Below, one piece after another: positions 10,545-63,058 of a DNA stretch of 64,000 bases. The position numbers and the translations under genes are program-made. The number at the start of each line of letters is the position of its first letter. Position 1 is the stretch's first letter. The DNA is taken from the NCBI GenBank assembly GCA_964610055.1, contig CAZSUC010000001.1, positions 6,021 to 70,020 on the forward strand, read 5' to 3'. The DNA comes from an uncultured Candidatus Saccharibacteria bacterium (GTDB lineage: Bacteria > Patescibacteriota > Andersenbacteria > UBA10190). The notes below the pieces were generated by a model, which was given only the letters and a program-made list of their open reading frames with translations, was not told where the DNA came from and did no database searches.

Positions 10545-11240
10545 ATGAGGCCTGGTCCAAAACCAAAGGGCTGCGTATCTATTCAATGGTCATCAAAATT
10601 CGCTTATGCAATTGGTCTTCTTGTAGCAGATGGCTGCTTACTCAATGATGAACGACACATTGATTTTACATCCAAAGATTTAGGACAGATACAAACATTT
10701 AAAAAATGCTTGGGACTCAAAGTAAAAATCGGTACAAAAATATCAGGAACAGGCAAAAAATCTTACCGCATACAATTTGGGGACGTACTATTTTACAAGT
10801 TTCTTATACAAATCGGACTATCTACAGCAAAATCAAAAACAATATCGGGTGTTTCTGTGCCCAACCAATATTTCCCTGACTTTCTTCGAGGCTATTTTGA
10901 CGGAGATGGAACTAGTTATTCTTTCTATGATTCTATATTTCCAAAAAGTTATAGATTCTACATTGGATTTACGACTGCCAGCCCTAAGTTTGTCCATTGG
11001 TTAAGAAAGAAAATCAAAGATCTAGTACACGTAAAAGGACATATTTTCAATTATCCCAACAATAACTATTTCCAACTTAAATACTCAAAGCGTGAAGCCG
11101 TGGCAATTTGTCAATACATGTACAAGAAAAACAGTATCTACTTTTTAAAAAGAAAATATTTGAAAATTCAAAATTCTATACGCATAATCAATCAATGCCG
11201 AGGTGGTGAAATTGGTAAACACGCTACGTTCAGGTCGTAG
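10545..11240 (+). CDS. Single-chain double-motif LAGLIDADG homing endonuclease
   Basis: Two LAGLIDADG-type motifs, FAYAIGLLVADGCL and FLRGYFDGDGTS, about 95 aa apart. The region is AT-rich with Lys-rich codon usage unlike its neighbours. The last 14 codons overlap tRNA-Leu. Confidence 0.75.
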   Translation: MRPGPKPKGCVSIQWSSKFAYAIGLLVADGCLLNDERHIDFTSKDLGQIQTFKKCLGLKVKIGTKISGTGKKSYRIQFGDVLFYKFLIQIGLSTAKSKTISGVSVPNQYFPDFLRGYFDGDGTSYSFYDSIFPKSYRFYIGFTTASPKFVHWLRKKIKDLVHVKGHIFNYPNNNYFQLKYSKREAVAICQYMYKKNSIYFLKRKYLKIQNSIRIINQCRGGEIGKHATFRS

Positions 11241-11280
11241 TGCTCGCAAGGGCTTGCGGGTTCAAGTCCCGCTCTCGGCA
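11197..11280 (+). tRNA. tRNA-Leu(CAG), type II with a long variable arm; no CCA encoded
   Basis: Manual cloverleaf: acceptor GCCGAGG/TCTCGGC (7 bp, 1 G-U), D stem GTG/CAC with an 11-nt loop, anticodon stem CTACG/CGTAG with loop TTCAGGT (anticodon CAG), 15-nt variable arm with a 4-bp stem, T arm GCGGG-TTCAAGT-CCCGC, discriminator A. Confidence 0.85.
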
Positions 11281-11525
11281 CAAGAATTACTTATTTTTTA
11301 TTTACAGTTCCCTATTTCTCCATAGTTCCTAATCTAAAAATTAGATTTTACTCGAAACACTATACTAATATTAAATTTAATAATTCTTACCGTCTTCTGA
11401 ACCAGTATCACTGTCTATACCTGTCTAGAAGTCAGAGATATAAGCAATAGAAGATTTGTTATTTGCTCTAATAAAAGATAAAGACTAATTCTTGCTAATT
11501 TCCAGTACCTTTATAAAACACCGTT

Positions 11526-20962: not shown

Positions 20963-20987
20963 CCCGCCAATCACGGCGGGTTTTCTT
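20963..20987 (+). terminator. Rho-independent terminator
   Basis: CCCGCC-aatcac-GGCGGG followed by TTTTCTT. Confidence 0.65.
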
Positions 20988-21834
20988 ACTTTAATTGCAT
21001 CTCAGTTACTAGTCGCTGCGCTTCAGCCTGAATTTTAGCCACAACTTGATCGCTGAACTCTGCCTTTTGTTTCAGCTTATCTGCCGGCATTTCTGCTGCC
21101 TGCGTTACTAAAACAATCCCTTGAGCGCTCATTGCTTGCCATTCCGCACTACCAACTGCCTCCAACACCGTTACCGGATACAACCCTTTTGTTTCAATAA
21201 TTTGCGCTAAATTTCCTCGATCCGGATATCGCCAAGCAATAATTTTCATCCCCACACATTTACCATACGCCGCCGCATCAGACGTCACTTTTGTATTTGT
21301 CACCACCCATGCTCGGTAATTCCTTCCGTCCGTCTGCGCAATATCTAAATACCGCGCGTAAGCCGCTAAAGTTACCTTTACATCCGAACGCGTTCCGGAT
21401 TGGTTGTGATATTTACATTCAATTAAATTACGTCTATCGCCTTTATCCGCCACCACATCAACTTCGTGCTGCACACATTCACCTGCTACCAATTGGCTCA
21501 CTTTCACCTTATACCCATAAAACCGTAATACTGCTCCAATATACTGCTCAAACGGATAGCCACTCGGACCCATTCTCATCATTGCTTTCTTTAAAGAATA
21601 TCGAGCGGCTAAAACCGGTTGTTCTCGCTTTAATTCCGCAAATGTCGCCTCATATACTTCACTCGAAGTCACACTTGCCCCTAGAGCTTTCTCTACTTTT
21701 TTCGCCGTACTCCGTGCTAAAGCCTCGCTTACCCCCGCCCGCTCCAAAGAAGAGACGATTTTGTTAGCATTAAAATTTTCTTCAACTCCGCTTGCTTTCC
21801 GTACTCTTGGCTCCATACCCATATACCTTCCCAT
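20986..21834 (-). CDS. ATP-cone domain fused to a Mrr-like PD-(D/E)xK restriction-endonuclease domain
   Basis: N-terminus VRKASGVEENFNANKIVSSLERAGV (ATP-cone, as in NrdR/RNR). The core is HEVDVVADKGDRRNLIECKYHNQ (D...ExK). Confidence 0.65.
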   Translation of the reverse strand: MGRYMGMEPRVRKASGVEENFNANKIVSSLERAGVSEALARSTAKKVEKALGASVTSSEVYEATFAELKREQPVLAARYSLKKAMMRMGPSGYPFEQYIGAVLRFYGYKVKVSQLVAGECVQHEVDVVADKGDRRNLIECKYHNQSGTRSDVKVTLAAYARYLDIAQTDGRNYRAWVVTNTKVTSDAAAYGKCVGMKIIAWRYPDRGNLAQIIETKGLYPVTVLEAVGSAEWQAMSAQGIVLVTQAAEMPADKLKQKAEFSDQVVAKIQAEAQRLVTEMQLK

Positions 21835-34228: not shown

Positions 34229-34891
34229 TTATCGCGGCACCAATACATCTTTTTGAATAACTTTTGACCGCCCGGCCGCATTAGTCGCTTGCACTCTTAC
34301 AACATTTACTCCTTCGTGCACATATAGATTCGTTTCAAACGTTCCTGCTTGCGTTAATAAGACTTGTTCTCCGTTAACTGTAATCTCTGCGTCTTCAGCC
34401 GCCGTGCCAGCAACCCTAACCACGTCATCGCTTAACACCACGCTTTCTGGCGAATTAACCGCTAAAGCCGGCAATCGCACAAACGATGCTACCTGCCACG
34501 CCACATACCCACCAACTACAAAAGCTAACGCTCCTAACCCAAGCGCTAAAAACAACCGCGGCGTTGCCACTGCTTCCAACCACGGTCTTGGAGTATGTAC
34601 CCGTAACGGCACTAATTCTCTTGCCCCTGACAGAGTACGTTGAAACGCTCGATTATATGATTCCGCTGCCACTCCTAAAAAAGTCGCGTACTTTCGAAAC
34701 GCTCCTCGCGCATAAATTTCCGCCGGAAAAACACTTAAATTACCTTCCTCTAACGCTCGTAAATGCTTAGCCGGAATATGCAACTGAGTTGCTGCGTCCT
34801 CTAACAGCAAACCTTGCCGACATCGAGCTTCTTCTAAAACACGCCCGACTGTTCTATCCGGACGCGTCCGGCACGGTCGAGCTCCTACCAT
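34229..34891 (-). CDS. RodZ-like protein (XRE-type HTH, TM, C-terminal DUF4115-like domain)
   Basis: HTH (LLLEDAATQLHIPAKHLRALEEG), one TM segment, and a C-terminal beta-rich domain. Confidence 0.55.
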   Translation of the reverse strand: MVGARPCRTRPDRTVGRVLEEARCRQGLLLEDAATQLHIPAKHLRALEEGNLSVFPAEIYARGAFRKYATFLGVAAESYNRAFQRTLSGARELVPLRVHTPRPWLEAVATPRLFLALGLGALAFVVGGYVAWQVASFVRLPALAVNSPESVVLSDDVVRVAGTAAEDAEITVNGEQVLLTQAGTFETNLYVHEGVNVVRVQATNAAGRSKVIQKDVLVPR

Positions 34892-37140
34892 GGTTGCCCT
34901 GTCTCCTGTTTGCCAGGCTCCGTTTCATCTGGCGACAATTGCTCTTGCCGATCAAAACCTGCTTCTAAATTACCAATAACTTCTCGGGGCTTATTGCCTT
35001 TAGCCGGCCCAATGATTCCTTCTTCTTCCAACATATCTAAAATCCGCGCTGCTCGTGCATACCCCACTCGTAATCTGCGCTGCAACAAACTCGCGCTTAC
35101 TTTACCCGCATCGTAAGCCACTCGCTTGGCCTCTTCAAACAAGGGATCATCGGCTGACTCTCCTGTACCACTCGATTCCCCTCCTACCTCATGCACTGCG
35201 GTAATTGATTCAGCTGCAACATATTGATCAGCCTCATTATTCTCCTCCACAAACTGTACTACTGCCCTAACTTCTTCTTCGGAAATATATCCTCCTTGTA
35301 AGCGTCGCGGCTTAGTGTTATCTGTTGCTAAAAATAACATATCACCAGTCCCTAATAATTTTTCTGCCCCACCCATATCTAAAATAGTACGAGAATCCAC
35401 TTGCGACGCCACCTTAAATGCAATTCGAGCCGGTACGTTCGCTTTAATTAACCCAGTAATAACATTCACTGACGGTCGCTGCGTCGCTAAAATCAAATGA
35501 ATCCCAACCGCTCGCGCTAACTGCGCCAATCTTACAATTGGCCCCTCAACTTCTCTTCCATGTTTTGCCATCAAATCAGCTAACTCATCAATCACAATTA
35601 CAATAAATGGCTGTGCATTATCCGGATGATTGAAATTATACGAGACCAAATTTCGCGACCCAGTCTCCTCTAACATCCGATATCGTTTATCCATCTCACT
35701 AATTGCCCATTTCAAAGCATTTAGAGTCTTTCCGGGATCAGTAATGACATTTTGCCCCCACAAATGCGGTATCCCATTATACGCCGTTAACTCGACTCGT
35801 TTCGGATCAACTAGTACTAATCGCAACAAGGATGGCGAATTACGAAAAATTAATGACATTAAGATCGTATGAATACACACCGATTTTCCTGAATTAGTTG
35901 CCCCCGCAATCAACAAGTGAGGCATCCGATCCAGTTCCGCAGTTACTGCCGAACCAGTTACATCTTTACCAAGCGCCAACATCAGTGGAGACTCGGAACG
36001 CTTAACTTCTTTAGATGACAATAAGCTGTGCAATCTAACCAAAGCTACTTCCTTATTCGGTATCTCAATCCCTACTAAATCAGTATTTGGTATCGGCGCT
36101 TCAATACGTACTGGATGTGCCCGTAAAGCTCGTGCTAAATCATTTTGCAACGCCGTAATTTGTGACAGCCGTACTCCCTCATCCGGACGCAACGTATATT
36201 GAGTTACTGTTGGCCCCACTTTCGCCTTTCCCATTGTCACCGTAATACCAAAATTTTCCAGAGTTTTCGCAATAATCTCTTTATTACCTTCCACATCCCC
36301 ACCTTCTGGTTGTCGACTCGTTGATAATAATAAGTCCAAAGAAGGCGGATGATATTCTCTATTCGCCTGCTTTAATTGTTTACGCCGCATTTCTTCTTGT
36401 TGTTTTTCTTGTTGCGCCTGCTGCTCTAATTTTGCCTGATCAGGATCTGGGGTTACTGGTTTCGCAATCGGCGTTAAATGGAATCTTGGCAAAACTCCTC
36501 CTGCCGGCCTTGACTCCGTCTCCTCGCGATCTCCGTCTTCCTCGCTTTCGTCTTCACTATCTGCCGAAGCTGAACCAGGAACTAATCCTTTAATCCATCT
36601 CCCTACATCAGACGGAGAAACATCAAAGCCAATGCATACACCAATCAAACTCGCGGCTATAAATATCAGTCCGGACATTAACGGCGAAAGCGCTAAACTT
36701 AACGGATAGCTCAACAAAAAGCCCAGAAAACCTCCGCCACCGCCCTCGTAAGCCACCTGCAACGACTCATCTACCGGTCCCCCAATTAAATGTAACCCAC
36801 CCAACAGTCCTACAAATACTAAAATAAAACCGGCTAAACGAGTGCGAGTTAACGCTTCTTGAGCTGGCCTCACTAATCGATAGCCTATCCACATCACCAC
36901 CACCGGCATCACATAAGCTAACCATCCAAATATTTTTTGCCAAACCAATAACAATCCGTCCCCTAACTTACCTGACTGTCCAAAAAAGCTAAATACCGTA
37001 ATTATTGCCAGCGTAATCAGTAAAACACCGGTAACAGCCCGTTTTGTCTCTGGTTTCAGCCAACTCACTGGCGAAGGAGCCGCCTGCGGCCGCCGGTTAT
37101 GACGTCGTTGTTTCTTTCCCCCAAAAGGATTTAATTTCAT
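34885..37140 (-). CDS. ftsK: DNA translocase FtsK/SpoIIIE
   Basis: N-terminal TM segments, an acidic linker, the motor domain (AGATNSGKSVCIHTIL, DELADL) and a C-terminal gamma wHTH. Confidence 0.9.
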   Translation of the reverse strand: MKLNPFGGKKQRRHNRRPQAAPSPVSWLKPETKRAVTGVLLITLAIITVFSFFGQSGKLGDGLLLVWQKIFGWLAYVMPVVVMWIGYRLVRPAQEALTRTRLAGFILVFVGLLGGLHLIGGPVDESLQVAYEGGGGGFLGFLLSYPLSLALSPLMSGLIFIAASLIGVCIGFDVSPSDVGRWIKGLVPGSASADSEDESEEDGDREETESRPAGGVLPRFHLTPIAKPVTPDPDQAKLEQQAQQEKQQEEMRRKQLKQANREYHPPSLDLLLSTSRQPEGGDVEGNKEIIAKTLENFGITVTMGKAKVGPTVTQYTLRPDEGVRLSQITALQNDLARALRAHPVRIEAPIPNTDLVGIEIPNKEVALVRLHSLLSSKEVKRSESPLMLALGKDVTGSAVTAELDRMPHLLIAGATNSGKSVCIHTILMSLIFRNSPSLLRLVLVDPKRVELTAYNGIPHLWGQNVITDPGKTLNALKWAISEMDKRYRMLEETGSRNLVSYNFNHPDNAQPFIVIVIDELADLMAKHGREVEGPIVRLAQLARAVGIHLILATQRPSVNVITGLIKANVPARIAFKVASQVDSRTILDMGGAEKLLGTGDMLFLATDNTKPRRLQGGYISEEEVRAVVQFVEENNEADQYVAAESITAVHEVGGESSGTGESADDPLFEEAKRVAYDAGKVSASLLQRRLRVGYARAARILDMLEEEGIIGPAKGNKPREVIGNLEAGFDRQEQLSPDETEPGKQETGQPW

Positions 37141-49974: not shown

Positions 49975-51873
49975 ATGGCTATTTTAGCGATCCTCTTATT
50001 TATCATCCCTGCTTTCACCGGATCTATCACTTGGTTACTCTGGAATTTAGCTCACGAAAAAATCACTATCTTAATCGGCGGAACATTTACTGGGCTTTCT
50101 GTTTTTACTCTGTCTCTTTTTGGACTTTATGTTTTTTTTCCACTCTCATCCACTTTAATTCTTAGTCTTCTTTCATTTTTCTTGTGCATTGGACTGTCTT
50201 TAATTTTAATCGCTTCTCGGCGCCAGATTGATTTAGCCGAACGTTGGCATCATCTTGATTTTGATTACTGGCTTCTTGGCGTCATCTTATTTATTAGCCT
50301 CATCTTTTCTATTATTTCGCCCAAACTCTTACTCGTTAATGAAAACGGCGGACTTTCCACTGGTATTATCAATGCTTATGGCGACGTCGCTTGGCATGCC
50401 TCTAATATTACTTATTTCGTTAATAATCACGCTTTCCCTCCTGAAGACGCTATCTTTGCTGGACACCCCTTAGTCTATCCTTTCCTAACCAACTTTTTCA
50501 GTTCTGCTCTTATGATTAGCGGACTTCCTCTTCACCAGAGCCTCACTGTCCCAGCTATTATTCTTATTCCTCTGCTTTTTGCTTGTTTATATATTTTTTC
50601 CCGTGCCCTCTTGCGCTCATCTTCACCACGCATTTCTGTTTTAATTATTCTTTTGTTTCTTTGTGGCGGCGCCACTCTTGGCTTTACGCGCCTTCCTGCT
50701 GACTTTCAACAAAGCAATTTATCTCTTGGATCATTTTTATGGCATTTGCCACAAGCCGATTATTCCGGGGTTGGCACCAGCACAGATGGTTTTCATTTTC
50801 TTAACCCCAGTACCTCGCTCCTGCTTCCTCAACGCGCTTTTCTCTTTGGTTTACCGTTAGCCTTACTTATTCTCTATCTGTTTATCATCGGCACGACCAC
50901 CTCTTCTCGCCCTCACTATTTCTTTGCTGGTTTACTTGCCGGCACCCTGCCTCTTTTCCACGCTCATACTATTATCGCTCTTATACCCGCTATTATTATT
51001 TTTAGTTTACCCGTCGGATGGCATCGCTCTCATCGTTTTGGTCTCTTTATTTTTGCTTTAACCTCTCTCTGTGTTGGAGCTCCTGGTATCTGGTATTACT
51101 ACACCTTCATGAGCAGCGGATCATCTTTCTTTCGTTGGGATCCCGGCTGGATGTCAACCGGAAATTTTATCTGGTATTGGTTTAAGAACACTGGTTTTTT
51201 GTTTCCTGTCATTTTATCCGGACTTTTCTTACCTGCTCCAAAATTAATCAAAAAACTTACCCTCGCGGGATTAATTCTTTTTATCGCCTCCAATCTTTTC
51301 TTATTTGCGCCATGGGCTTGGGATAATTTTAAATTACTCATCTATTTCTTTATTTTTTCATTACCCTTATTTACATGGACTCTTGCTTGGATCTGGCGTA
51401 AATATACCTACGCACCCTTACATATCGTGCTTGGATTAATTGTCTTGTTCCAAATTTCCGCTGCCACCTTAGATATATGGAAACTCCTATTACCAACCGC
51501 CACTACTTGGGAAGAGTGGAGCCAAAACGACATTGCGGCTGCTGCCATGATCACTCAAACCACCCCAGCCGATGCTGTTATTGCAACTGCTGCTATCCAT
51601 AATTCACCCGTTGTTTTAGCTGGCCGTGCTCGTTATCTCGGCTACACCGCGCACATTTGGAGCCATGGAGGTAACCCTTGGGAACGCGAACAATCCCTAA
51701 AACTATTTTACCAGGGATTCTTAAACACTCTGCCTGACATCGCCGTGGATTATGTTCTCATTGGACCAGCCGAAAACTATCGCTATCGATCCCTTAAAAT
51801 CGCACCTAATTGGCAGCTAGTTGCTCAAAGCAATTCCTACCAACTTTACCAAGTTAATACTTCGTCTAATTAA
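49975..51873 (+). CDS. Large polytopic membrane protein, possibly a PMT/ArnT/YfhO-like glycosyltransferase
   Basis: 632 aa with more than 12 predicted TM helices. The function is an inference from topology only. Confidence 0.3.
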   Translation: MAILAILLFIIPAFTGSITWLLWNLAHEKITILIGGTFTGLSVFTLSLFGLYVFFPLSSTLILSLLSFFLCIGLSLILIASRRQIDLAERWHHLDFDYWLLGVILFISLIFSIISPKLLLVNENGGLSTGIINAYGDVAWHASNITYFVNNHAFPPEDAIFAGHPLVYPFLTNFFSSALMISGLPLHQSLTVPAIILIPLLFACLYIFSRALLRSSSPRISVLIILLFLCGGATLGFTRLPADFQQSNLSLGSFLWHLPQADYSGVGTSTDGFHFLNPSTSLLLPQRAFLFGLPLALLILYLFIIGTTTSSRPHYFFAGLLAGTLPLFHAHTIIALIPAIIIFSLPVGWHRSHRFGLFIFALTSLCVGAPGIWYYYTFMSSGSSFFRWDPGWMSTGNFIWYWFKNTGFLFPVILSGLFLPAPKLIKKLTLAGLILFIASNLFLFAPWAWDNFKLLIYFFIFSLPLFTWTLAWIWRKYTYAPLHIVLGLIVLFQISAATLDIWKLLLPTATTWEEWSQNDIAAAAMITQTTPADAVIATAAIHNSPVVLAGRARYLGYTAHIWSHGGNPWEREQSLKLFYQGFLNTLPDIAVDYVLIGPAENYRYRSLKIAPNWQLVAQSNSYQLYQVNTSSN

Positions 51874-53823: not shown

Positions 53824-54759
53824 ATGGCCTCTATCGCAAACTTAAATGGCATTGTCTTAATCGACAAGCCGTCCGGTCCAAGTTCACACGACATCGTTAA
53901 TAAAGTTCGTTACCTCTTAAAACCATCACGCATTAAGGTCGGACATACTGGCACTTTAGACCCATTTGCCCGCGGCCTCTTAATCATCGCCCTTGGATCA
54001 GCCACTCGACTCATCCAATATTCACACACATTACCTAAATCATATTCAGCGACAGCTATTCTAGGCACTTCCAGTTCTACCGACGATCTTACCGGCACAC
54101 TTTCTCCGCTCACCAACGCGCCCTTAATTACATTAGCTGATATTCAAAAAGTTTTACCGCAATTTACCGGCAAAATTGCTCAGACTCCTCCCGCCTACTC
54201 TGCAGTTAAGATTAACGGCCAGCCTCTATACAAACTTGCTCGTCATGGAAATCTCACTGAAGCTCAGCGCAAAGCAGGGGAGAGGGGACGCATCGTTACG
54301 ATATATGATATTCAAATTACTGAGTTTTCATACCCTGAACTGCATCTCCATATTAATTGCGGTACCGGCACATATATTCGCAGTCTTGTTCGCGACATCG
54401 GTAACGCCCTGAGTACTACTGCCTACGTCAGCGCTTTAACTCGTGTAACTACAGGTAAGTTCCACATTTCTGATAATGAAGTTATCCACAATTTATCCAC
54501 AGAAGTTATCCACAATAATATTTTGCCTCCAGAAACCCTTATTGACCACTTACCTAAACTGTATCTTGATCAAAACAGCGTCGCACAATTACAACAGGGT
54601 AGAGCAGTACCAACTTTGACTCCACCCAATCTATCCCCTTACTACGCTATCTTTTCTCCCCAAAAACGCCTCATTGGTATTAGTACATTTGACCCTGACA
54701 CCAATTTGTTACGTCCCAAAACTATTCTCTCCCACCCCTCTGCGCCAATATCCTCTTAA
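53824..54759 (+). CDS. truB: tRNA pseudouridine(55) synthase TruB
   Basis: VLIDKPSGPSSHDIV...GHTGTLDPFARGLL catalytic Asp region. Confidence 0.85.
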   Translation: MASIANLNGIVLIDKPSGPSSHDIVNKVRYLLKPSRIKVGHTGTLDPFARGLLIIALGSATRLIQYSHTLPKSYSATAILGTSSSTDDLTGTLSPLTNAPLITLADIQKVLPQFTGKIAQTPPAYSAVKINGQPLYKLARHGNLTEAQRKAGERGRIVTIYDIQITEFSYPELHLHINCGTGTYIRSLVRDIGNALSTTAYVSALTRVTTGKFHISDNEVIHNLSTEVIHNNILPPETLIDHLPKLYLDQNSVAQLQQGRAVPTLTPPNLSPYYAIFSPQKRLIGISTFDPDTNLLRPKTILSHPSAPISS

Positions 54760-54814
54760 CCCGCCCATCCTATTAATATTTGACTTTATTCGCTCAGCAT
54801 CTCATACTCACCCC

Positions 54815-55084
54815 ATGCCTCAAACAAGTTCAGCCAAAAAGGCCCTACGTAGCAGTGAGCGTAAGCGCGTGATCAACAACCGCTGGCGTCATATTATGCG
54901 TGCTAACATTCGAACCGTTCGTGATGCAATTCAAGCCGGTGATTCTCAAACAGCCACCCAGGCGTTCACAAAAGCTCAACGCATCATTGATCGTGCTGCC
55001 CGCAGAAACATTATTCATCCTACAAACGCTGCTCGCAAAAAATCTCGCCTTCAATTGGCTATTCAAAAAATCGTTGCTAAATAG
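54815..55084 (+). CDS. rpsT: 30S ribosomal protein S20
   Basis: MPQTSSAKKALRSSERKRVINNRWRH... The start is at the internal Met of track ORF 54674..55084. Confidence 0.8.
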   Translation: MPQTSSAKKALRSSERKRVINNRWRHIMRANIRTVRDAIQAGDSQTATQAFTKAQRIIDRAARRNIIHPTNAARKKSRLQLAIQKIVAK

Positions 55085-56000
55085 CCGGTTCCACTAAACC
55101 AGCTATTAACATTAATAAGGCCGTCCGTTCTTGTACGCGGCCTTGTTTAATCGCCAGATTACTTGCTGCAATTTTGCGCATCGCCATCCACCACTCCTGA
55201 GAATTTAATTTACTCGCTCTACCCCAATTTTTTTCCACGACATAAGGATGTATTTTTGCTTCTCGTGAAATATCTGTCGGCCTCTTACCTTGATCCTTCC
55301 CTTGGCTAATTATCCATAACGATCGAAACTGGCTGTTTAATGTTGCCATAATTCTTAATTCAGGCTCACCTTGATCCAAAAGCTTCGTTATGCCTTCTAC
55401 AGCCTGCTGCGCATGCCTCGCTACGATTGCATCCATAACCTTAAATATTTCTGCTTCTATTTGAGTTTCATTATCTTGCTGAACCAAGTCTAACGATATT
55501 TGTTTATGTATAATCGCTAGCTTCTGTATTTCATTCTCAATCCTCCATCGATTCCCTTTATATGCCGAGACTAACCAGTGAATCGCTTTTTTCTCTATTT
55601 CCGCTCCATTCATCTGCACCAGTTGACGCACCCAATCCTCTAACTTAGACCATTCTAACGCCTTGTATTCTCGAGACTTCAATTTTACTAATTCTTTATG
55701 CAATTTTAAGCGCAAATCAGGCTTTCCTTGTTCCCATAAAATTAGACGACTCGTATCCCTATCTGTTGCTATTACTCGTCGTACTTGGTCTTGCTCTTTT
55801 ATTAATAGTCGCAACGGATTATTTACCACTACCAACTCGGACCCCCATAAACTTTGACCACTATCTAACCAGGAACCTAGCCCTTTTTGTTCCAAATCCT
55901 CCTGATTAAGCCAGCGTACTATCGCCTTCTTCTCTTGTGCCAAATCTTGAATTTCATGCCAAGCAGCATAAGTATCTTCACCCCAATAATATTCGGCCAT
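55077..56000 (-). CDS. holA: DNA polymerase III delta subunit
   Basis: YWGEDTYAAWHEI N-terminal pattern, length, and the C-terminal helical domain. Confidence 0.5.
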   Translation of the reverse strand: MAEYYWGEDTYAAWHEIQDLAQEKKAIVRWLNQEDLEQKGLGSWLDSGQSLWGSELVVVNNPLRLLIKEQDQVRRVIATDRDTSRLILWEQGKPDLRLKLHKELVKLKSREYKALEWSKLEDWVRQLVQMNGAEIEKKAIHWLVSAYKGNRWRIENEIQKLAIIHKQISLDLVQQDNETQIEAEIFKVMDAIVARHAQQAVEGITKLLDQGEPELRIMATLNSQFRSLWIISQGKDQGKRPTDISREAKIHPYVVEKNWGRASKLNSQEWWMAMRKIAASNLAIKQGRVQERTALLMLIAGLVEPAI

Positions 56001-56020
56001 TCCTCCCCCTTTCTTAAATC

Positions 56021-57235
56021 TTACTCCGCTGCTCCTGTTGGACTAGCCACTGAAGATTCCGGTACCCACGTTACGGGAATTGATGGATCTGGAGCCATAA
56101 CCCACACCTGGCCTCGAGTAAATGTAATTTCTTCTCCTGTTTCGTCCATGAAATGTACCGGGTCTTTTTTGTTTAATTCATCCTTGCGCCAAGTGCCTTT
56201 TATTTCTTGGCCATCCTGATAAACCATTAACTCACCTGTTCCTTCAATTGACACATCATTATACCCTCCATCCGCCGGCACTGCTGACTGATTGGTTGCT
56301 CGCATAATTACCACAACACTTGGAGCTACTCCCGTCCCACTTTCGGGATCAGTTTGTTCTACCCCTCCCCAATATCTCACATAGCGATTAGTCTCTGGAT
56401 CATATTCATAACTCACTCGAAATTGACCCGGCCAATCCACCGAAAGTGTACCCCCAGCCGGACGTTCTGACATTGGTGCGTCATCTTTAAATTCGTACCC
56501 AGCAAACTGCGTCTCAGTGCGATAACCTAATTTTTGCAATGCTTCCCACAGTCTTTTGTAACTAGTAAATCCATTATATGGAGCCGGTAAAGTATCTTTT
56601 CTATAAAAAGCATCATACGGATTAGTTAAAGCATTCATTGTTTGAAATTCACCCGCCGTAATTCGATTCAAAGCGTGAAAACTACCTCCCCAGTGTGCTA
56701 ATATTGCATCTATCCCATCTGCTAAGAATAAATAATCATGTCGAGCGGATCGAACTGAACCAATTTCAGTTGGTTCACCGCATTGATAAACCGCCATTAA
56801 TCGCGTCACATTACTCACCAAAACCGGTAATTCCCACACCATATCCGCCTTAGCAAATCCAGATACTGGCCGATTAATCGGATCAGAAGCTAGCATTACA
56901 GCAACTGGACGTCTATTAGCGTTTTCACAACTCATTCCTGACAACCCGCTTACTTCCGAACTAATTGTAACTTTTTCCTCTCTCTCTCCGGCCATAGGCA
57001 AATCCCCTCCGGTTAAACTATCGTCTCCACCATTTCGTTGCCCACTACGAGCAGCTACCCAAGCTAAAGCTGCCACTAAAACTAATGCCACCACTACTCC
57101 AACAATTGCCATGATTTTTTTATTCCCTTTTCGCTTCGACCGCTTTGGTCCTTCGTGAAATAAATCCGACTTTAACTCCACCGTTGCCATCGGTCTTGAC
57201 GGCATTTCATTATCTTCTTCACGCCCATCATTCAT
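56021..57235 (-). CDS. DUF3048-domain membrane-anchored protein (YerB-like)
   Basis: TM, then PVAVMLASDPINRPVSGFAKADMVWELPV...TRLMAVY, matching DUF3048. Confidence 0.5.
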   Translation of the reverse strand: MNDGREEDNEMPSRPMATVELKSDLFHEGPKRSKRKGNKKIMAIVGVVVALVLVAALAWVAARSGQRNGGDDSLTGGDLPMAGEREEKVTISSEVSGLSGMSCENANRRPVAVMLASDPINRPVSGFAKADMVWELPVLVSNVTRLMAVYQCGEPTEIGSVRSARHDYLFLADGIDAILAHWGGSFHALNRITAGEFQTMNALTNPYDAFYRKDTLPAPYNGFTSYKRLWEALQKLGYRTETQFAGYEFKDDAPMSERPAGGTLSVDWPGQFRVSYEYDPETNRYVRYWGGVEQTDPESGTGVAPSVVVIMRATNQSAVPADGGYNDVSIEGTGELMVYQDGQEIKGTWRKDELNKKDPVHFMDETGEEITFTRGQVWVMAPDPSIPVTWVPESSVASPTGAAE

Positions 57236-57308
57236 AAGGAAATTGAACTAAAAAATTAATATATGACGGTAGTATACCCAATTCACTCTCATTTACGCCA
57301 ATCACATT

Positions 57309-59789
57309 CTAACTAATATCAAATAAAGATTCGCTCAAATAATCCTGGCTACCTCCTTTATTATTATCTCGTGGCCCACCTAAGCTAAATCTTTCTAAAA
57401 TTTGCTCCTCAATTATTTCTCGTGATCGACCATATTTTTGGCGAGATAATTCTCTAATCTCCTCTCGTCTTTGACTATCCCCACCCGCTGGCGGCGGAGA
57501 AATTTTCAAACTAAAGGGTCGTGTCGGCGTGCCATCTACCAACAAACGCACTGCTGCCGTAAATCTCTCCAAATTGACTAAATCATATTGCTTAAATACT
57601 GGATCAAATTGTTTCTCCAAAAATTCAGCGTCCTCGACTCCTACCCGATAGCTGACCACCGTTCCTACGTTCCCAAACACCGCTTCTCTAATGCCATCCT
57701 CTAATTGCTGAATAAATTGATGCGTGAGGTTTAAATCCAAATTATATTTCCGGGCTTCCGACAGAATTGTCACTATACTATCTGTCGTAAAATTCTGAAA
57801 CTCATCTAAGTACAGATAGAAATCAGGTCGTTGATCACTCGGTTTATTTGCTCGTCCCAATGCTGCAATTTGAATTTTCGAAACCAAAATAAATCCTAAC
57901 AAGTCAGAATTAATATCACCTAACTGACCTTTAGATAAGTTACATAGTAAAATTTTGCGTTGATCCATAACTTCTCTTACATCAAATGACGATCGCGGTT
58001 GGCCAATCATATTTCGCATCACTCGGTTACCCAAGAAACGCCCTAGTTTACTAATAACATAGCTCAGCATATCCGCTGACATCTGTCCTCGCTGCGACTG
58101 CACAAACTCTTTTTCCCAGAACTGGCGCACCGTTGGATCAACCTGATGTTTTAATATGTTCGCTCTAAACTCTTCATCCACAAACATTCTTGGCACATCT
58201 AATAGAGTCGAGGCTTCATCTTCAACTAAAGCTAATAACGAATTCCTTAAATAATGTTCAAACATGGGACCAATCGATTCCGGATTCAAACGCGCCGCTA
58301 ATTTTTGCAATATCTGCACTACTTCATTTACAACCAGGTCTTTCTGACCAGGATCTTTTGCTTCTAAAATATTAAAACCTAATGGCTTTTCCGTGTCTCT
58401 CGGATCAAACAAAATAACATCCTGCATTCTTTCCGGCGGGATTAATTGCAAAATATCCTCAATTAAATCTCCGTGCGGATCAACCACCCCAACCCCATGT
58501 CCCGCTAAAATATCTTGAACCACCATATTTAAAAATAATGTCGTTTTACCAGTTCCTGTCTGCCCAATTAAATACAAATGTCGCCGCCGATCATCCGCTT
58601 GTAAATGTACCGGTTGACTCACTCCTCGATAAACATTATGCCCTAGCAGTATGCCTTCTTCTGGTAAATTAGCCGGTATTGGCGCTATCTTCGCGCCTCT
58701 CCACAAAATATTTGGTGTTGCTGTAGTTTCCAGCGGAAAATGAAATAACGATGCTAACTCAGTTGTACTCAAAGAACTGGATTTTTTTTGTCGCGGCACA
58801 CGAAAAATTAAGTCGCGTAACCATGCTTTTGAGTTTTTGGTCTTAATTATTTTCAGAGAATTCAAATCTGGTAAATCGTATTGCGCAAAACTTCCTAACA
58901 AAGCATTAAACACTCGATCAGCATCTTCTGGCGCTCTAGTAGAAACTCCGACTCTAATATTCACGTCAAACTGTTGTTGCGATAATTTTTGCTCTACCAA
59001 TTCAACTCTCTGTTGCGCTCGTGGAGTTAATCTTGACCATTCTTCCCGTTCTCGTTGTTTTTCCTCTGTCTTTCGCAACGAATCTCGTGCCGCACCTATC
59101 AATGATTGTTTATTCGCCACATCCATCTGTCGACCACGCATAGTTTTCATTGCCGCCTGTCGGCCTCGTCGCCGCGCCTTCTCTCCACCCGCTCTTAACA
59201 CTAACTGAACTACCGCCGCGTCTAGTCTCTGTATTTTTGCTAACGCCCCTGTAATTGATTGCATCGGATCAGCTTCCAACTCTTTATATGTCGCCAACGG
59301 CAAATGACCATCTTTCTTCAATTTTAAATTTGCTGTCCTGATTGTATCTCCCAACTCGAAAATAGTATGTTCATCCATCCTCTTCACCTCTGCTTCTGGA
59401 TAAAAGGCATATATTTGCTTCTCCAGATGATCTAAATATTTACGCTCCGTTCCCGCATAGAAAACAATCACCCCATCCTCCCGCGCTACAATTTCTAACA
59501 CTATAACTGGCCGTCCATATAACCACTTATTCCATCCTGCCGTTGGTAAATTTGATAAGGTCGATAACCACTGCTCTGCCACCGCAATTCTTTCTTTAAT
59601 TGCATCTCCGACTCCTTCTTCTCGTTCTTCCCGAGTTAAATCTTTTGGCAACGCCACTTGCAACATTTCAATATCCAAGGTACGACGCACTATCGCCTGT
59701 TCTTTCACAACCTGCCAAACAATCATAATAGTAATTACACCTAGTCCTACTAGACCAATTATTAAACTAATTGTAATAAATGGCTCCAT
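57309..59789 (-). CDS. Type IV coupling protein-like ATPase (TraD/TrwB/VirD4 family) with an N-terminal TM and a ~380-aa extra domain
   Basis: GQTGTGKTTLFLNMV...VVDPHGDL (Walker A plus the DPxGD typical of T4CPs) and YLYLDEFQNF Walker B. Confidence 0.6.
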   Translation of the reverse strand: MEPFITISLIIGLVGLGVITIMIVWQVVKEQAIVRRTLDIEMLQVALPKDLTREEREEGVGDAIKERIAVAEQWLSTLSNLPTAGWNKWLYGRPVIVLEIVAREDGVIVFYAGTERKYLDHLEKQIYAFYPEAEVKRMDEHTIFELGDTIRTANLKLKKDGHLPLATYKELEADPMQSITGALAKIQRLDAAVVQLVLRAGGEKARRRGRQAAMKTMRGRQMDVANKQSLIGAARDSLRKTEEKQREREEWSRLTPRAQQRVELVEQKLSQQQFDVNIRVGVSTRAPEDADRVFNALLGSFAQYDLPDLNSLKIIKTKNSKAWLRDLIFRVPRQKKSSSLSTTELASLFHFPLETTATPNILWRGAKIAPIPANLPEEGILLGHNVYRGVSQPVHLQADDRRRHLYLIGQTGTGKTTLFLNMVVQDILAGHGVGVVDPHGDLIEDILQLIPPERMQDVILFDPRDTEKPLGFNILEAKDPGQKDLVVNEVVQILQKLAARLNPESIGPMFEHYLRNSLLALVEDEASTLLDVPRMFVDEEFRANILKHQVDPTVRQFWEKEFVQSQRGQMSADMLSYVISKLGRFLGNRVMRNMIGQPRSSFDVREVMDQRKILLCNLSKGQLGDINSDLLGFILVSKIQIAALGRANKPSDQRPDFYLYLDEFQNFTTDSIVTILSEARKYNLDLNLTHQFIQQLEDGIREAVFGNVGTVVSYRVGVEDAEFLEKQFDPVFKQYDLVNLERFTAAVRLLVDGTPTRPFSLKISPPPAGGDSQRREEIRELSRQKYGRSREIIEEQILERFSLGGPRDNNKGGSQDYLSESLFDIS

Positions 59790-59793
59790 TTTT

Positions 59794-60276
59794 CTACTCC
59801 GCCAAAATTACCAAAATTGCTAGCCCAATTCCTAATACCATTCCTCCTATCAGCAACACCCAGCCAGCTAACGGTTGCTTATTTAACTTAGAAGTTACCA
59901 CTAAATCGTACATCTCACTTGTTAATACATCATGAAAAAGATCTAAATTACGAGGGTAGTTAGGGCTGCTTTGCGCTTGTTTGATAGCTGCAGTCAAATC
60001 TTTTGCAAACGCGGTATTAACTAATATCTGCGCTTCTTCATGCTCTTCTTTAGTATGCTCCCACGGAGACTTAATCGAATCCACTGCCTCTCCTGCAGCC
60101 GCAATTTGCTCCGCCACAATCTCGCCTATTTTTTCTTTAGTTCGATCTACTCCCTTTACTTCATTCTGAGTTTGCAGTCTTTCACCTACTTCTTGCCGAA
60201 AAGATTCCGCTCTTTCTTGATCCGGAAAAACTAAAGTCTCACGTTCCCAATCTGTCCGTTCACGTCTTTTCTCCAT
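59794..60276 (-). CDS. Hypothetical protein with a C-terminal TM helix
   Basis: 160 aa, acidic, with C-terminal WVLLIGGMVLGIGLAILVILA. It has a 4-nt gap to the T4CP gene. Confidence 0.4.
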   Translation of the reverse strand: MEKRRERTDWERETLVFPDQERAESFRQEVGERLQTQNEVKGVDRTKEKIGEIVAEQIAAAGEAVDSIKSPWEHTKEEHEEAQILVNTAFAKDLTAAIKQAQSSPNYPRNLDLFHDVLTSEMYDLVVTSKLNKQPLAGWVLLIGGMVLGIGLAILVILAE

Positions 60277-60298
60277 GCTTACATCATACCACGCCTAT

Positions 60299-61933
60299 CT
60301 ACTTCAATCCGTATTCCCTCTGCTCAATCAACGTTAAATGACGCAATTTCTTTGCTATCACCGGATTAGATTCTGCTATTATTTTTATTGCTTCCTCTCT
60401 CGCGCTTTGTCGTCTTTGATGTAAATAATTCCACCCCGGCACTCTCCTTAAAACATTTTTAATACTCACCATTGTCCGTTGAAATTTAGCCTGAGCATTA
60501 TCACCGTATTGCAAAGTGTCATAATCAACAATATCCCAATACAACCCATTATTTAAATATTTTATAATTTGTCCTTTTTTACTGTCTGGCAAACTACTGC
60601 TCTGTAACTTTTCCACCACGCGATTATCTTCCGCTAGTCTCTCCCAGTCCCCGCCCGCCAACGATTCTCCTTCTGCTTTTAGATAGCCTTCCAATTCAGC
60701 CATTTCAGTTAAATCAGTATCTCGCGCTCGTCTCTCTTCTTTACTCCTCACTGTTTCTTTTCCTTGCCTTTTTAATTCTTCTTTCCTCTGATCAATCATA
60801 CGCCCTATCTGCAATTTACGATCATCGATTTTTTCTTGCGTACTTCTCTCTTTAAATTTGTACAATCTAGTCTTTTCAATCATTCGTATCAACAAACCTT
60901 TTTTATTACTATACAAATGCCTATCATATCTACTACCCCTTCGCGTGAATCCTTTCATTAAACCTTGCATCACCTCATCTTTTCTATCTTTAACTGGCAT
61001 CTGATCTATTACTTCCCATAATTCAGTCTTATTTCCACATTGCTTAGCTATATTTAAAAATGCCATTTCAGCATAAAGTGACAATAATTTAGGATCAATG
61101 TCCTCAATTTTTATATCTTCTCGCGCTGATCCTGCCGCCGGAGTAACTTCATTATTTTTTTCCTTTGACGGTTCACTTTCATTCACAACCCTAGCACCTT
61201 CACGGCCTTCTTTTTTATCATCCTCAGCCTCACCAACCGCCTCCGGCTCAGCTCCTTCAGGCCTCGTATCTTCAGGTTTTGGGTTCATCTCTTCCGCCGG
61301 TCTTTTGATTTCATAAGCCTGATTAAGCCTTTCTAGCATACTCCTAACTAAAGTCGGCAGGTCTTCTATTTGTCGTATGTCTCCATATTCCCTCGATACC
61401 CCTGCTCTAATTTCGGCCCGTTTTTTTCGTTTTTCATCTAGACTCAAATTTTGAAAATCGTTTGCTTCTCGCAGCCATCTTTGACCACGTAATAACAATG
61501 TTATTGATTGTCCCAACAGATATGATTTACGTCCTGCCGCTTCCACTTTATCTGTCTCGTTAGCAACCTTTGGTGCACTACTTACACAAAGTTTAGCTAA
61601 TAAAACCAGTGCCCGAGCTTGATTACGGTCACTACCTACCTTCTTTATCACATCCTCAAAATTAAATCTCCCACCATCTCTAAGCATTGCCCCCGTAATT
61701 TTTTTATAAGCCTCGTTCACCCCCTCACCCTCGCCCTCAAACACACGATCATTAAGTAAGCCAAATAATTTTCCTGATAACGATGATTCTCCTGTTAATA
61801 TTCCATCTACAGCCACTCTCACCTTTTCATTTGTATCCCTATCCTCACTAGACCTATCAACCGTCAATAATTTCCCTACTCTCTCCTCCACGCTAACACC
61901 AGTACCACTGTGTGGATTTACTTCTATCTTCAT
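60299..61933 (-). CDS. Large charged hypothetical protein (544 aa), no recognisable domain
   Basis: Long open frame, coiled-coil-like K/E/R-rich segments, same strand and tight spacing with the two genes downstream. Confidence 0.45.
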   Translation of the reverse strand: MKIEVNPHSGTGVSVEERVGKLLTVDRSSEDRDTNEKVRVAVDGILTGESSLSGKLFGLLNDRVFEGEGEGVNEAYKKITGAMLRDGGRFNFEDVIKKVGSDRNQARALVLLAKLCVSSAPKVANETDKVEAAGRKSYLLGQSITLLLRGQRWLREANDFQNLSLDEKRKKRAEIRAGVSREYGDIRQIEDLPTLVRSMLERLNQAYEIKRPAEEMNPKPEDTRPEGAEPEAVGEAEDDKKEGREGARVVNESEPSKEKNNEVTPAAGSAREDIKIEDIDPKLLSLYAEMAFLNIAKQCGNKTELWEVIDQMPVKDRKDEVMQGLMKGFTRRGSRYDRHLYSNKKGLLIRMIEKTRLYKFKERSTQEKIDDRKLQIGRMIDQRKEELKRQGKETVRSKEERRARDTDLTEMAELEGYLKAEGESLAGGDWERLAEDNRVVEKLQSSSLPDSKKGQIIKYLNNGLYWDIVDYDTLQYGDNAQAKFQRTMVSIKNVLRRVPGWNYLHQRRQSAREEAIKIIAESNPVIAKKLRHLTLIEQREYGLK

Positions 61934-62008
61934 ATTTTCAATATATCACTCAATTTTTCATCACACTATCACTATTTCGACTTTTCTTGTTAAATTTATA
62001 AATACTCC

Positions 62009-63058
62009 ATGCCTCATCCTAAACTCATTTTTTCTCTTTTTAGCACGCTAATTTTAAGTGCTGCTATCGTATTATTTCAGCCTCAGCTTTCTTCTCTGTT
62101 CCATAATTTGTCGTCTGCCAACTCAACCGACTCATCTTCACTGCCTCAACCATTACAAGACTTTACCGGAAATGACACCGGCCAATTAACTTTAGATGGA
62201 ATCTTGGCTGCCACTAATAATTACCGCCAAGAGCAAGGTTTATCGCCGCTTACTCTTAACTCTCAACTTAATCAAGCTGCCATCACTAAAGCTAACGATA
62301 TTTTAGCCAAACAATATTTTGATCATGTTGCCCCCGATGGCACTCAGCCGGCCGATCTAGTCACTGCGACTGGTTATGCCTATTTACGCGTTGGAGAGAA
62401 TCTCGCTCTTGGTAATTTTACTACCGACAATGATTTAGTGTCAGCTTGGATGAATAGTCCTGGTCATCGCGCCAACATTCTCGCTCCTAATTTCAGTGAA
62501 ATCGGTATTGCCGCTGTCGCTGGAACTTACGAAAATCAATTTGCTTGGGTCGCCGTTCAAACCTTCGCTTTACCTACTTCAGCCTGCCCCACGGTCTCTC
62601 CTGATTTACACACTCAAGTAGAAACACTTACTCAAACCGCTACTACTCAACAAAACGATCTTGTTGCTCGTCGAACTAACCTAGAAAATTATCAAACCCA
62701 ACTCCAAGATTTAACCGATCAATTTAACACTTTTGTCGCTTCTGCTAATCAGAAATTAACTGCCGGCAATGAACGTATCGATCAAGGCAATCAAATCATG
62801 CAATCAACTTACGATCCTGATCGCGCTCAAGATGACTGGGATGCCGGCGCCGCCCTCCAATCTGAAAGTCAACAGCTCCAAACACAAGCCGATGAAATTC
62901 GCTTACAGATTAATCATCTCAATACCACCTATTCAACCTATCAAGATGAATACAATCAATTAGTTGATACTTACAACAGCACCGCTGCTAATTTGCGTTC
63001 CTTAACCGAGCAACTCAACGAACAAATTAACGCTTATAACAATTGTATTTCAATCTAA
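62009..63058 (+). CDS. CAP/SCP (PR-1-like) domain protein with an N-terminal TM or signal and a C-terminal Q-rich coiled-coil
   Basis: NNYRQEQGLSPL...GENLALGNF...WMNSPGHRANIL CAP motifs. Confidence 0.6.
   Translation: MPHPKLIFSLFSTLILSAAIVLFQPQLSSLFHNLSSANSTDSSSLPQPLQDFTGNDTGQLTLDGILAATNNYRQEQGLSPLTLNSQLNQAAITKANDILAKQYFDHVAPDGTQPADLVTATGYAYLRVGENLALGNFTTDNDLVSAWMNSPGHRANILAPNFSEIGIAAVAGTYENQFAWVAVQTFALPTSACPTVSPDLHTQVETLTQTATTQQNDLVARRTNLENYQTQLQDLTDQFNTFVASANQKLTAGNERIDQGNQIMQSTYDPDRAQDDWDAGAALQSESQQLQTQADEIRLQINHLNTTYSTYQDEYNQLVDTYNSTAANLRSLTEQLNEQINAYNNCISI

Follow-up and report, generated by a model that had tools for sequence, protein, structure and literature searches.

The stretch analysed here, hereafter the window, comprises 64,000 nucleotides (nt) of contig CAZSUC010000001.1 (positions 6,021 to 70,020, forward strand; GenBank assembly GCA_964610055.1) from an uncultured bacterium of the Patescibacteria, lineage Andersenbacteria. 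Our subject is a minus-strand gene near its right end which encodes an 826-residue ATPase of the type IV coupling protein (T4CP) family. We read it, at roughly even odds (probability about 0.5), as the Andersenbacteria orthologue of a pan-Patescibacteria, vertically inherited T4CP ATPase of DUF8128 subtype that serves a chromosomal type IV secretion system (T4SS) encoded elsewhere. The gene, its parts and the small gene directly upstream of it are as follows.

57309..59789, minus strand: DUF8128-type T4CP-family ATPase, 826 amino acids, whole gene (open reading frame (ORF) confirmed; Pfam, hhalign, AlphaFold2 model)
59676..59789, minus strand: residues 1-38, long N-terminal helix with a single predicted transmembrane anchor at about residues 5-27 (hydropathy, model)
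58680..59675, minus strand: residues 39-370, DUF8128 alpha/beta domain with a predicted VirB4-like fold (domain model, Foldseek)
57381..58679, minus strand: residues 371-803, T4CP-type nucleotide-binding domain with an all-alpha insert at about residues 480-600 (hhalign, Foldseek)
58542..58565, minus strand: residues 409-416, Walker A, GQTGTGKT (G409, G412 and K415 invariant in a 34-sequence alignment)
57795..57806, minus strand: residues 662-665, Walker B, DEFQ (D662 and E663 invariant in the same alignment)
59794..60276, minus strand: acidic tail-anchored small partner protein, 160 amino acids (ORF confirmed; conserved position)

The family identity of the nucleotide-binding domain was assessed through profile searches and alignments. 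Besides Walker A, the protein contains VVDPHGDL at residues 435-442, and its Walker B begins the longer motif DEFQNF at 662-667. Two Pfam models, TrwB_AAD_bind (28.2 bits against a cut-off of 20.5) and T4SS-DNA_transf (26.5 against 20.1), exceeded their thresholds, with TraG-D_C just under its own; NCBIfam matches were all sub-threshold and all of T4CP type (SXT TraD, the VirD4-like CD1115 family, TOL TraD, TrbC and CedB/D). Among 34 diverse members of the family, TrwB_AAD_bind was matched by 33, TraG-D_C by 32, T4SS-DNA_transf by 20 and AAA_10 by five, while CagE_TrbE_VirB was matched by none of the 34. The family profile, compared with PDB sequences, gave TrwB (6.5e-8) and DotL (2.7e-5) as its best matches, HerA-like proteins lying far behind. 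Using hhalign, residues 394-696 aligned with residues 115-393 of R388 TrwB (probability 96.3%, E 1.8e-9), an alignment that takes in both Walker motifs and the all-alpha insert between them; for TrwK/VirB4 the probability was 12.8% over 98 columns. In the predicted structure the two Walker motifs (409 and 662) enclose seven helices, at residues 480-595. The T4CP hallmarks proposed in a first-pass annotation of the window are therefore borne out by the motifs, by the two Pfam models above their cut-offs and by the TrwB alignment. Judged by its sequence, the protein belongs to the T4CP family and groups with neither FtsK nor HerA. A PADLOC scan also returned a 46-bit match to mad8 and a weak match to HerA; because no other defence component is present, these were taken as generic ATPase similarity and a defence-system reading was rejected.

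At the N-terminus, hydropathy reaches its maximum of 2.6 at residue 5, and the structural model has a helix at residues 2-38. Canonical T4CPs usually have two N-terminal transmembrane helices. Basic residues follow the predicted transmembrane helix, so that by the positive-inside rule the rest of the protein would be cytoplasmic. The precomputed Pfam annotation assigns PF26449/DUF8128 to the protein and to each of the 120 homologues listed (120/120); our own hmmscan, whose library probably lacked the model, did not return it. The AlphaFold2 model, built on a 34-sequence alignment (predicted local distance difference test (pLDDT) 85.5, predicted template modelling score (pTM) 0.74), shows the N-terminal helix, an alpha/beta domain at about residues 40-350, the ATPase at 380-800 and a disordered tail. 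The first-pass annotation had envisaged a coiled-coil-rich extra domain of about 380 residues, a description that does not survive: the model has a confident alpha/beta domain of some 330-340 residues, in which a charged, low-confidence helical insert (about 203-270) is the sole coiled-coil-like part.

Foldseek searches of the PDB with the full model placed TrwK/VirB4 first (about 900 columns, E 3e-15), followed by TrwB (TMt 0.60-0.64), HerA, DotL and Cagbeta (8dol). When residues 36-370 were modelled by themselves (pLDDT 87.4, pTM 0.85), the only significant matches were TrwK/VirB4 chains, which made up the best 14 (E 6e-7 to 4.5e-4, TMq 0.40-0.50), over a span that fits the VirB4 N-terminal domain; next came chlorite dismutases and FAD oxidases, with E values of 3e-3 or more and lower TM scores. 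A DUF8128 profile compared with PDB sequences returned only noise, and a literature search for 'DUF8128' found no paper. On these predicted structures, we read the protein as a fusion in which the N-domain is VirB4-like and the nucleotide-binding domain resembles VirD4/TrwB.

The 160-residue protein has an isoelectric point (pI) of 4.9 and one predicted C-terminal helix (residues 134-160), in agreement with its earlier description as acidic and C-terminally anchored. Only 4 nt separate its gene from that of the ATPase, and just ahead of its stop codon lies GGAG, which the ATPase ATG follows after a few nucleotides. Homologues of 44-51% identity occupy the position directly upstream of the ATPase in all five of the other Andersenbacteria loci; in two of these, L003 and L004, they overlap the ATPase start by 4 nt, and in L005 the called coordinates also overlap. 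This is a conserved partner gene, then, and probably one translationally coupled to the ATPase. An iterated hidden Markov model (HMM) search found the family in 25 of 85 loci, every time as the ORF directly upstream of the ATPase. Its C-terminal motif is KG(V/I)..AV..A....DPY.LD.FHD.L, the membrane tail is restricted to Andersenbacteria, and none of the at least 1,100 homologues found in a database search has a Pfam domain.

Small upstream genes are not confined to this family. In the 79 loci with enough upstream sequence, counting ORFs that end between -30 and +40 nt from the ATPase start, a co-directional ORF abuts that start in 56 and is 90-210 amino acids long in 50. These small ORFs fall into at least three families. 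The second, seen in 21 loci (e.g. L008:5334-5864; upstream ORFs in L007-L057), has the motif KGEETA...WLK.IPGVNKFFLEQEAKIKTDKI, of which WL..IPGVNKFFLEQEAKIKTDKI is invariant; the third is found in loci of Levy-, Woese- and Daviesbacteria type (upstream ORFs of L058-L084) and has a C-terminus resembling WLA...R.LKQ. Comparison of the 160-residue family by hhalign gave probabilities of 0.2% with the second family and 0.3% with TrwA, and nothing was matched among PDB sequences. The conserved unit is the small upstream partner plus the ATPase.

The remaining genes of the cluster are these.

60299..61933, minus strand: highly charged orphan protein, 544 amino acids, adjacent and co-directional, not a conserved component (no homologue)
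56021..57235, minus strand: DUF3048 membrane-anchored protein, 73 nt downstream of the ATPase gene (Pfam DUF3048 3.9e-35, DUF3048_C 1.1e-22)
55077..56000, minus strand: holA (DNA polymerase III delta), with which the co-directional cluster ends (precomputed Pfam DNA_pol3_delta_C)

The three minus-strand ORFs of 826, 160 and 544 codons, the last two separated by 22 nt, and the DUF3048 gene just downstream are exactly as first annotated. After the DUF3048 gene come holA, rpsT and truB, holA lying 20 nt past it with a strong ribosome-binding site, GGGGGAGG. The exact 826-residue protein occurs on a 698,565-bp contig and its near homologues (60-73% identity) are labelled Candidatus Andersenbacteria or Patescibacteria, which argues that the window is part of the core chromosome of a bacterium of the candidate phyla radiation (CPR). 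When about 40 ORFs from all parts of the 64 kb were scanned against Pfam, housekeeping genes alone were recognised (among them uvrA/B/C, rpoB/C, recA, ftsK, ruvA, ssb, RNase J, PBP1, murein ligases, trpS) and, as had been stated, neither VirB4 nor VirB6, nor a pilin or relaxase. No integrase, relaxase or repeats of mobile-element type were found in the window, over which GC content and skew are uniform, and a promoter and terminator scan of 54600-62300 gave counts no higher than in shuffled sequence. The placing of the cluster in the core chromosome, first suggested from its neighbours holA, truB and rpsT, holds good given the housekeeping content of the window, vertical inheritance and a synteny conserved in Andersenbacteria.

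Homologues of the ATPase are numerous. An exhaustive phmmer search yielded 22,754 clusters at 50% identity with E <= 1e-3 and 6,348 with E <= 1e-30, many of them full-length. Several proteins (P0131, P0141, P0145, P0148, P0149 and others) are 1,100-2,000 amino acids long, match the query over their own first 800 or so residues and bear large C-terminal extensions. A scan of species-representative genomes gave at least 600 matches; the best 80 of these are from Uhr-, Magasanik-, Falkow-, Komeili-, Staskawicz-, Sacchari-, Levy-, Woese-, Davies-, Curtiss-, Peregrini-, Berkel- and Doudnabacteria, several of the metagenome-assembled genomes among them carrying doubtful taxon labels. The family spans all major classes of Patescibacteria.

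Within Andersenbacteria, identity to the window proteins is 72-79% for the ATPase domain and 52-65% for the DUF8128 domain, values that may be compared with 64-65% for the C-terminus of PolA, 37-45% for TruB and 24-34% for HolA. The DUF3048 protein is found in the same position, at 56-67% identity, in all five of the other loci, and the small partner and ATPase are always followed by DUF3048 and then holA. The ATPase domain, more conserved than PolA and set in a maintained gene order, belongs to a strongly constrained core gene rather than to a decaying remnant of a mobile element. In other classes no DUF3048 gene was found adjoining that of the ATPase, and clustering of flanking genes over 84 loci revealed no T4SS genes near it. 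A different order is seen in 21-23 loci (the labelled ones from Uhr-, Magasanik-, Komeili-, Buchananbacteria and similar), where the genes next downstream of the ATPase, in the same orientation, are one for a conserved protein of about 200 residues and then dnaX; the same ATPase thus precedes different clamp-loader genes in two classes, dnaX in these and holA in Andersenbacteria. The protein next to dnaX is very conserved, has no Pfam match and contains the motif IEGVFDGQNMVGPDGKQY...ANYASKSKLVEGD.LKLTI (e.g. L020:8496-9101, the next ORF being L020:9105-10583). In a further 7-8 loci, the labelled ones from Levy-, Woese- and Daviesbacteria, a ribonucleotide reductase gene lies upstream and a gene for a recombinase of the phage-integrase family (XerC/D-like) lies downstream with divIC. 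These recurring neighbours from replication and division are suggestive, yet they represent only a few events at the level of lineages.

Outside the CPR, relatives of the ATPase domain alone, 31-37% identical and with other N-termini, are mostly carried by non-mobilizable plasmids or chromids (275/335 records). Homology over both domains is found in an 886-residue 'DUF87 domain-containing protein' of Bacillus subtilis plasmids of about 25 kb (e.g. NZ_CP032854.1; hhalign E 9e-51, residues 70-765). Its gene lies directly upstream of a Replic_Relax gene, after which come TcpC, TcpE and an ATP-binding protein, and it takes the place of the coupling protein in a monoderm conjugation module of Tcp type. 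A second full-length homologue is gp156 of Bacillus phage G (hhalign E 1e-52; also captured by phrog_5156), encoded in this phage of about 500 kb directly after the VirB4-like gp155 (P-loop_TraG, AAA_10; L092:2195-6337). Several other phages of Bacillus and Geobacillus carry the ATPase part of the family. The 826-residue architecture has a conjugative ancestry, in the conjugation modules of monoderms; the plasmid and phage homologues fit the origin from the monoderm mating-pair formation class MPF-FATA proposed for the patescibacterial T4SS in a recent survey (PMC12102498).

That survey, by Quinonero-Coronel et al. 2025 (PMC12102498), reports 5,713 homologues of VirD4-type T4CPs in 2,918 of 3,035 Patescibacteria genomes (96%), only 148 of the 5,713 lying near virB4. 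VirB4 itself is recorded there in 2,417 genomes, often near dnaA, and the patescibacterial T4SS is described as MPF-FATA-derived and almost free of relaxases. The window gene is a further member of the T4CP homologues already surveyed, with the Pfam designation DUF8128. Its earlier description as an orphan T4CP stands insofar as no T4SS part lies within the 64 kb; it is nevertheless misleading, separation from virB4 being, by these counts, the norm of the phylum. The source genome probably has a T4SS elsewhere, and Table S1 of the same paper flags three Andersenbacteria assemblies as VirB4-positive. We found no account in the literature of DUF8128 having a VirB4-like fold, of the small genes tightly coupled to the ATPase on its upstream side, or of the synteny with clamp-loader genes.

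On our preferred reading, that of a vertically inherited coupling ATPase serving a chromosomal T4SS, the protein would assemble as TrwB does into a membrane-anchored hexameric ring and use ATP to recruit a macromolecular substrate and feed it into a monoderm-type (MPF-FATA-like) T4SS, itself usually encoded near dnaA. The VirB4-like N-domain would be a likely docking surface for membrane partners, and the small upstream protein may, by analogy with TrwA for TrwB or CagZ for Cagbeta, act as an adaptor or regulator of the ATPase. Since a relaxase is missing from most Patescibacteria, a plasmid is a less likely substrate than protein, or than DNA handled in a non-conjugative manner.

Several observations weigh against this reading. 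The t4cp homologue of Southlakia epibionticum is non-essential, its T4SS genes being essential, according to PMC12102498, and Wang et al. 2023 found no recognisable coupling protein or relaxase in the T4SS of that species (PMC10633639); together these argue against an obligate role in the T4SS. Subtraction of the survey's counts leaves at least 501 Patescibacteria genomes with a T4CP homologue in which VirB4 was not detected (PMC12102498). No T4SS component was found in the 64-kb window or in about 10 kb past its end. The small partners form at least three families between which homology could not be detected, none of them resembling TrwA or any solved structure. Finally, the hexamer, the topology and the binding of the partner are, for the 826-residue protein, all inferred.

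A possible though less favoured alternative is that the ATPase has been exapted as a motor independent of the T4SS. With its small partner it would then translocate across the membrane, or handle DNA, for some housekeeping purpose such as uptake or export of nucleic acid, or a role connected with replication or cell division. T4CP homologues are present in more genomes than VirB4 (2,918 against 2,417) and almost never adjacent to it, the Southlakia homologue is dispensable where the T4SS is essential, and the authors of the survey state that exaptation "cannot be ruled out" (PMC12102498). The degree of conservation, above that of PolA, also favours a housekeeping function, as do the clamp-loader genes holA or dnaX found just downstream on the same strand in two classes and the XerC/D-like recombinase, divIC and ribonucleotide reductase genes nearby in 7-8 loci; that synteny may, however, be incidental, reflecting two or three lineage-level events rather than independent observations. 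Related ATPase domains with other N-termini sit on replicons that are mostly non-mobilizable, which again favours exaptation, but the closest full-length homologues outside the CPR are found in conjugation-type or VirB4-adjacent contexts. The window, moreover, already encodes a bona fide FtsK (34885-37140), and no DNA-binding or competence partner of the ATPase was identified.

Bolder, and in our view improbable, is the idea that the DUF8128 ATPases constitute a distinct third lineage of T4SS-type motors, VirB4-like in the N-domain and VirD4-like in the nucleotide-binding domain, which in Patescibacteria was domesticated as a translocase that is autonomous, near-universal and of housekeeping function. 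This translocase might serve traffic of nucleic acid or protein tied to replication, division or the epibiotic interface. Lineage-specific small adaptors would then load the motor, and the fast-evolving charged proteins encoded immediately upstream in Andersenbacteria would be candidate substrates.

The first-pass annotation had gone further along the operon, suggesting a minimal or novel translocation module made up of the 544-residue protein, the 160-residue protein and the ATPase, and had named the conservation of all three genes in relatives as what should be checked. We consider such a module quite unlikely. The 544-residue protein is highly charged, as stated (96 D+E, 101 K+R), with no predicted transmembrane segment. 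It matched only itself among 5.8 billion proteins, found no match in Pfam, NCBIfam, PADLOC or PHROG, and showed no significant similarity to its positional equivalents in Andersenbacteria by BLASTP (E >= 0.5), hhalign (0.7%) or HMM search. Co-directionality and the short gaps of 22 and 4 nt speak for the module, as does the presence of a large, charged, Pfam-less protein of 592-772 residues in the upstream slot of four of the five other Andersenbacteria loci (L004:4592-6910, L005:5667-7475, L086:3556-5334, L087:3283-5412). Only some pairs of these are weakly similar to one another (E 1.6e-6, 1e-3); they may represent a single gene family tied to this position and evolving very fast. L003 has nothing in the slot and in L004 a reverse-strand gene interrupts it, and in loci from outside Andersenbacteria an unrelated gene precedes the small partner. 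Of the three genes only the small partner and the ATPase are kept, so that the proposed module fails on its own terms, and the 544-residue gene is a lineage-specific, fast-evolving neighbour that lies outside the machine.

It is very improbable that an ATPase of FtsK/SpoIIIE or HerA type has been mistaken for a T4CP, the grouping that had been named at the outset as fatal to the T4CP assignment. DUF87, the central domain of HerA, is matched by 32 of the 34 family members and HerA structures are among the Foldseek matches. In the window protein, however, DUF87 scores 20.7 bits, below its cut-off of 23.2, and covers residues 388-443 only, while TrwB_AAD_bind, T4SS-DNA_transf and TraG-D_C score higher and cover more of the protein. 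FtsK_SpoIIIE has no match in the window protein and only weak ones in three of the 34 members. The best PDB sequences are TrwB and DotL, with an alignment to TrwB that takes in the all-alpha insert, nurA was not detected among the approximately 40 ORFs scanned against Pfam, and the genuine FtsK of the window is a separate gene with all of its domains.

We give almost no credence to a decaying remnant of an integrated conjugative element, for which the plasmid conjugation genes among the family's distant relatives and a neighbouring CAP-domain protein with sub-threshold similarity to Relaxase_C (28.5 against 30) might be cited: the gene is intact with invariant catalytic motifs, it retains 72-79% identity in its ATPase domain and the same housekeeping neighbours across Andersenbacteria, and neither the uniform GC content and skew nor the lack of integrase, relaxase or typical repeats in the window suits such an origin.

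Other features of the window and its surroundings were noted in passing. The CAP-domain protein (62009-63058, plus strand) is a divergent, secreted CAP/YkwD-domain protein whose Q/N-rich coiled-coil C-terminus, the part with the Relaxase_C similarity, also matches FadA barely above the cut-off (28.9 against 28.5); proteins 38-44% identical to it are encoded near the locus in two Andersenbacteria relatives. Past two sugar epimerase/dehydratase genes lies a gene for a 632-residue protein without Pfam match (49975-51873, plus strand), found at 44% identity in the same position in three Andersenbacteria relatives. A 282-residue protein (20986-21834, minus strand) joins an N-terminal ATP-cone to an Mrr-type restriction endonuclease domain, to our knowledge an unusual pairing. 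A 231-residue ORF with a LAGLIDADG-like domain (10545-11240, plus strand) overlaps with its end the start of tRNA-Leu(CAG) at 11197-11281. Some 8-10 kb beyond the right end of the window (L001:1-1573) is a PilB-like assembly ATPase of type IV pili or type II secretion (MshEN + T2SSE); DHH, BacA, TsaE and PolA lie between, and the same T2SSE gene also occurs near the L003 locus. The GC skew of the plus strand, -0.13 to -0.43, is uniformly and strongly negative, both in the block of plus-strand genes (about 5-32 kb) and in that of minus-strand genes (about 33-62 kb) and so looks replication-related. Its magnitude seems unusually large.

Patescibacteria account for a large part of the diversity of bacteria and are host-dependent, and in the one genetically tractable species the T4SS is essential. 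The locus opens no new category; it adds testable detail on the role of the near-universal, dislocated patescibacterial T4CP homologues, namely the VirB4-like fold predicted for the extra domain, the origin in monoderm conjugation, a constraint above that on PolA and the tightly coupled small partner. Partner and ATPase together provide a defined two-gene unit that could be studied in Saccharibacteria.

Among known systems, TrwB of R388 is, like the 826-residue protein, a P-loop ATPase anchored in the membrane whose Walker A and Walker B motifs flank an all-alpha insert, and the predicted structure superimposes on it with a TMt of about 0.62. A small gene lies upstream in both, trwA ending 1 nt before trwB. 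TrwB has two transmembrane helices, whereas a single one is predicted here; the window protein differs also in the DUF8128 domain of about 330 residues between anchor and ATPase, in the absence of relaxase and mating-pair formation genes from the window and in a partner unrelated to TrwA, and the identity in the structural alignment is only some 16%. The idea of a small protein that binds a T4CP and regulates or loads it is shared with Cagbeta-CagZ of Helicobacter pylori and TraD-TraM of the F plasmid; the 160-residue protein differs in having no detectable homology to any solved structure, and only the coupling of the genes points to its binding the ATPase.

With VirB4 (TrwK) the protein shares a two-domain layout with a C-terminal ATPase and, in the predicted model, structural matches of the N-domain. 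The N-domain has, on the other hand, no similarity to VirB4 at the sequence level, the ATPase profile fits TrwB and not TrwK, and no virB3, virB6 or virB8 is adjacent to the window gene. The B. subtilis plasmid protein and phage G gp156 are homologous over both the DUF8128 and the ATPase domain. Unlike the window copy, the plasmid copy lacks the N-terminal transmembrane helix and has a long acidic C-terminal tail; it belongs to a Tcp-type module and the phage copy adjoins a VirB4-like gene, whereas the window copy sits in a core chromosome free of such neighbours. Closest in kind are the homologues of Quinonero-Coronel et al. (PMC12102498), which come from the same phylum, fall into the same VirD4/TrwB HMM class and lie, as here, away from virB4 and without a relaxase. 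To that description, which in the text available makes no mention of them, the present locus adds the DUF8128 N-domain with its predicted VirB4-like fold, the small upstream genes and the clamp-loader synteny.

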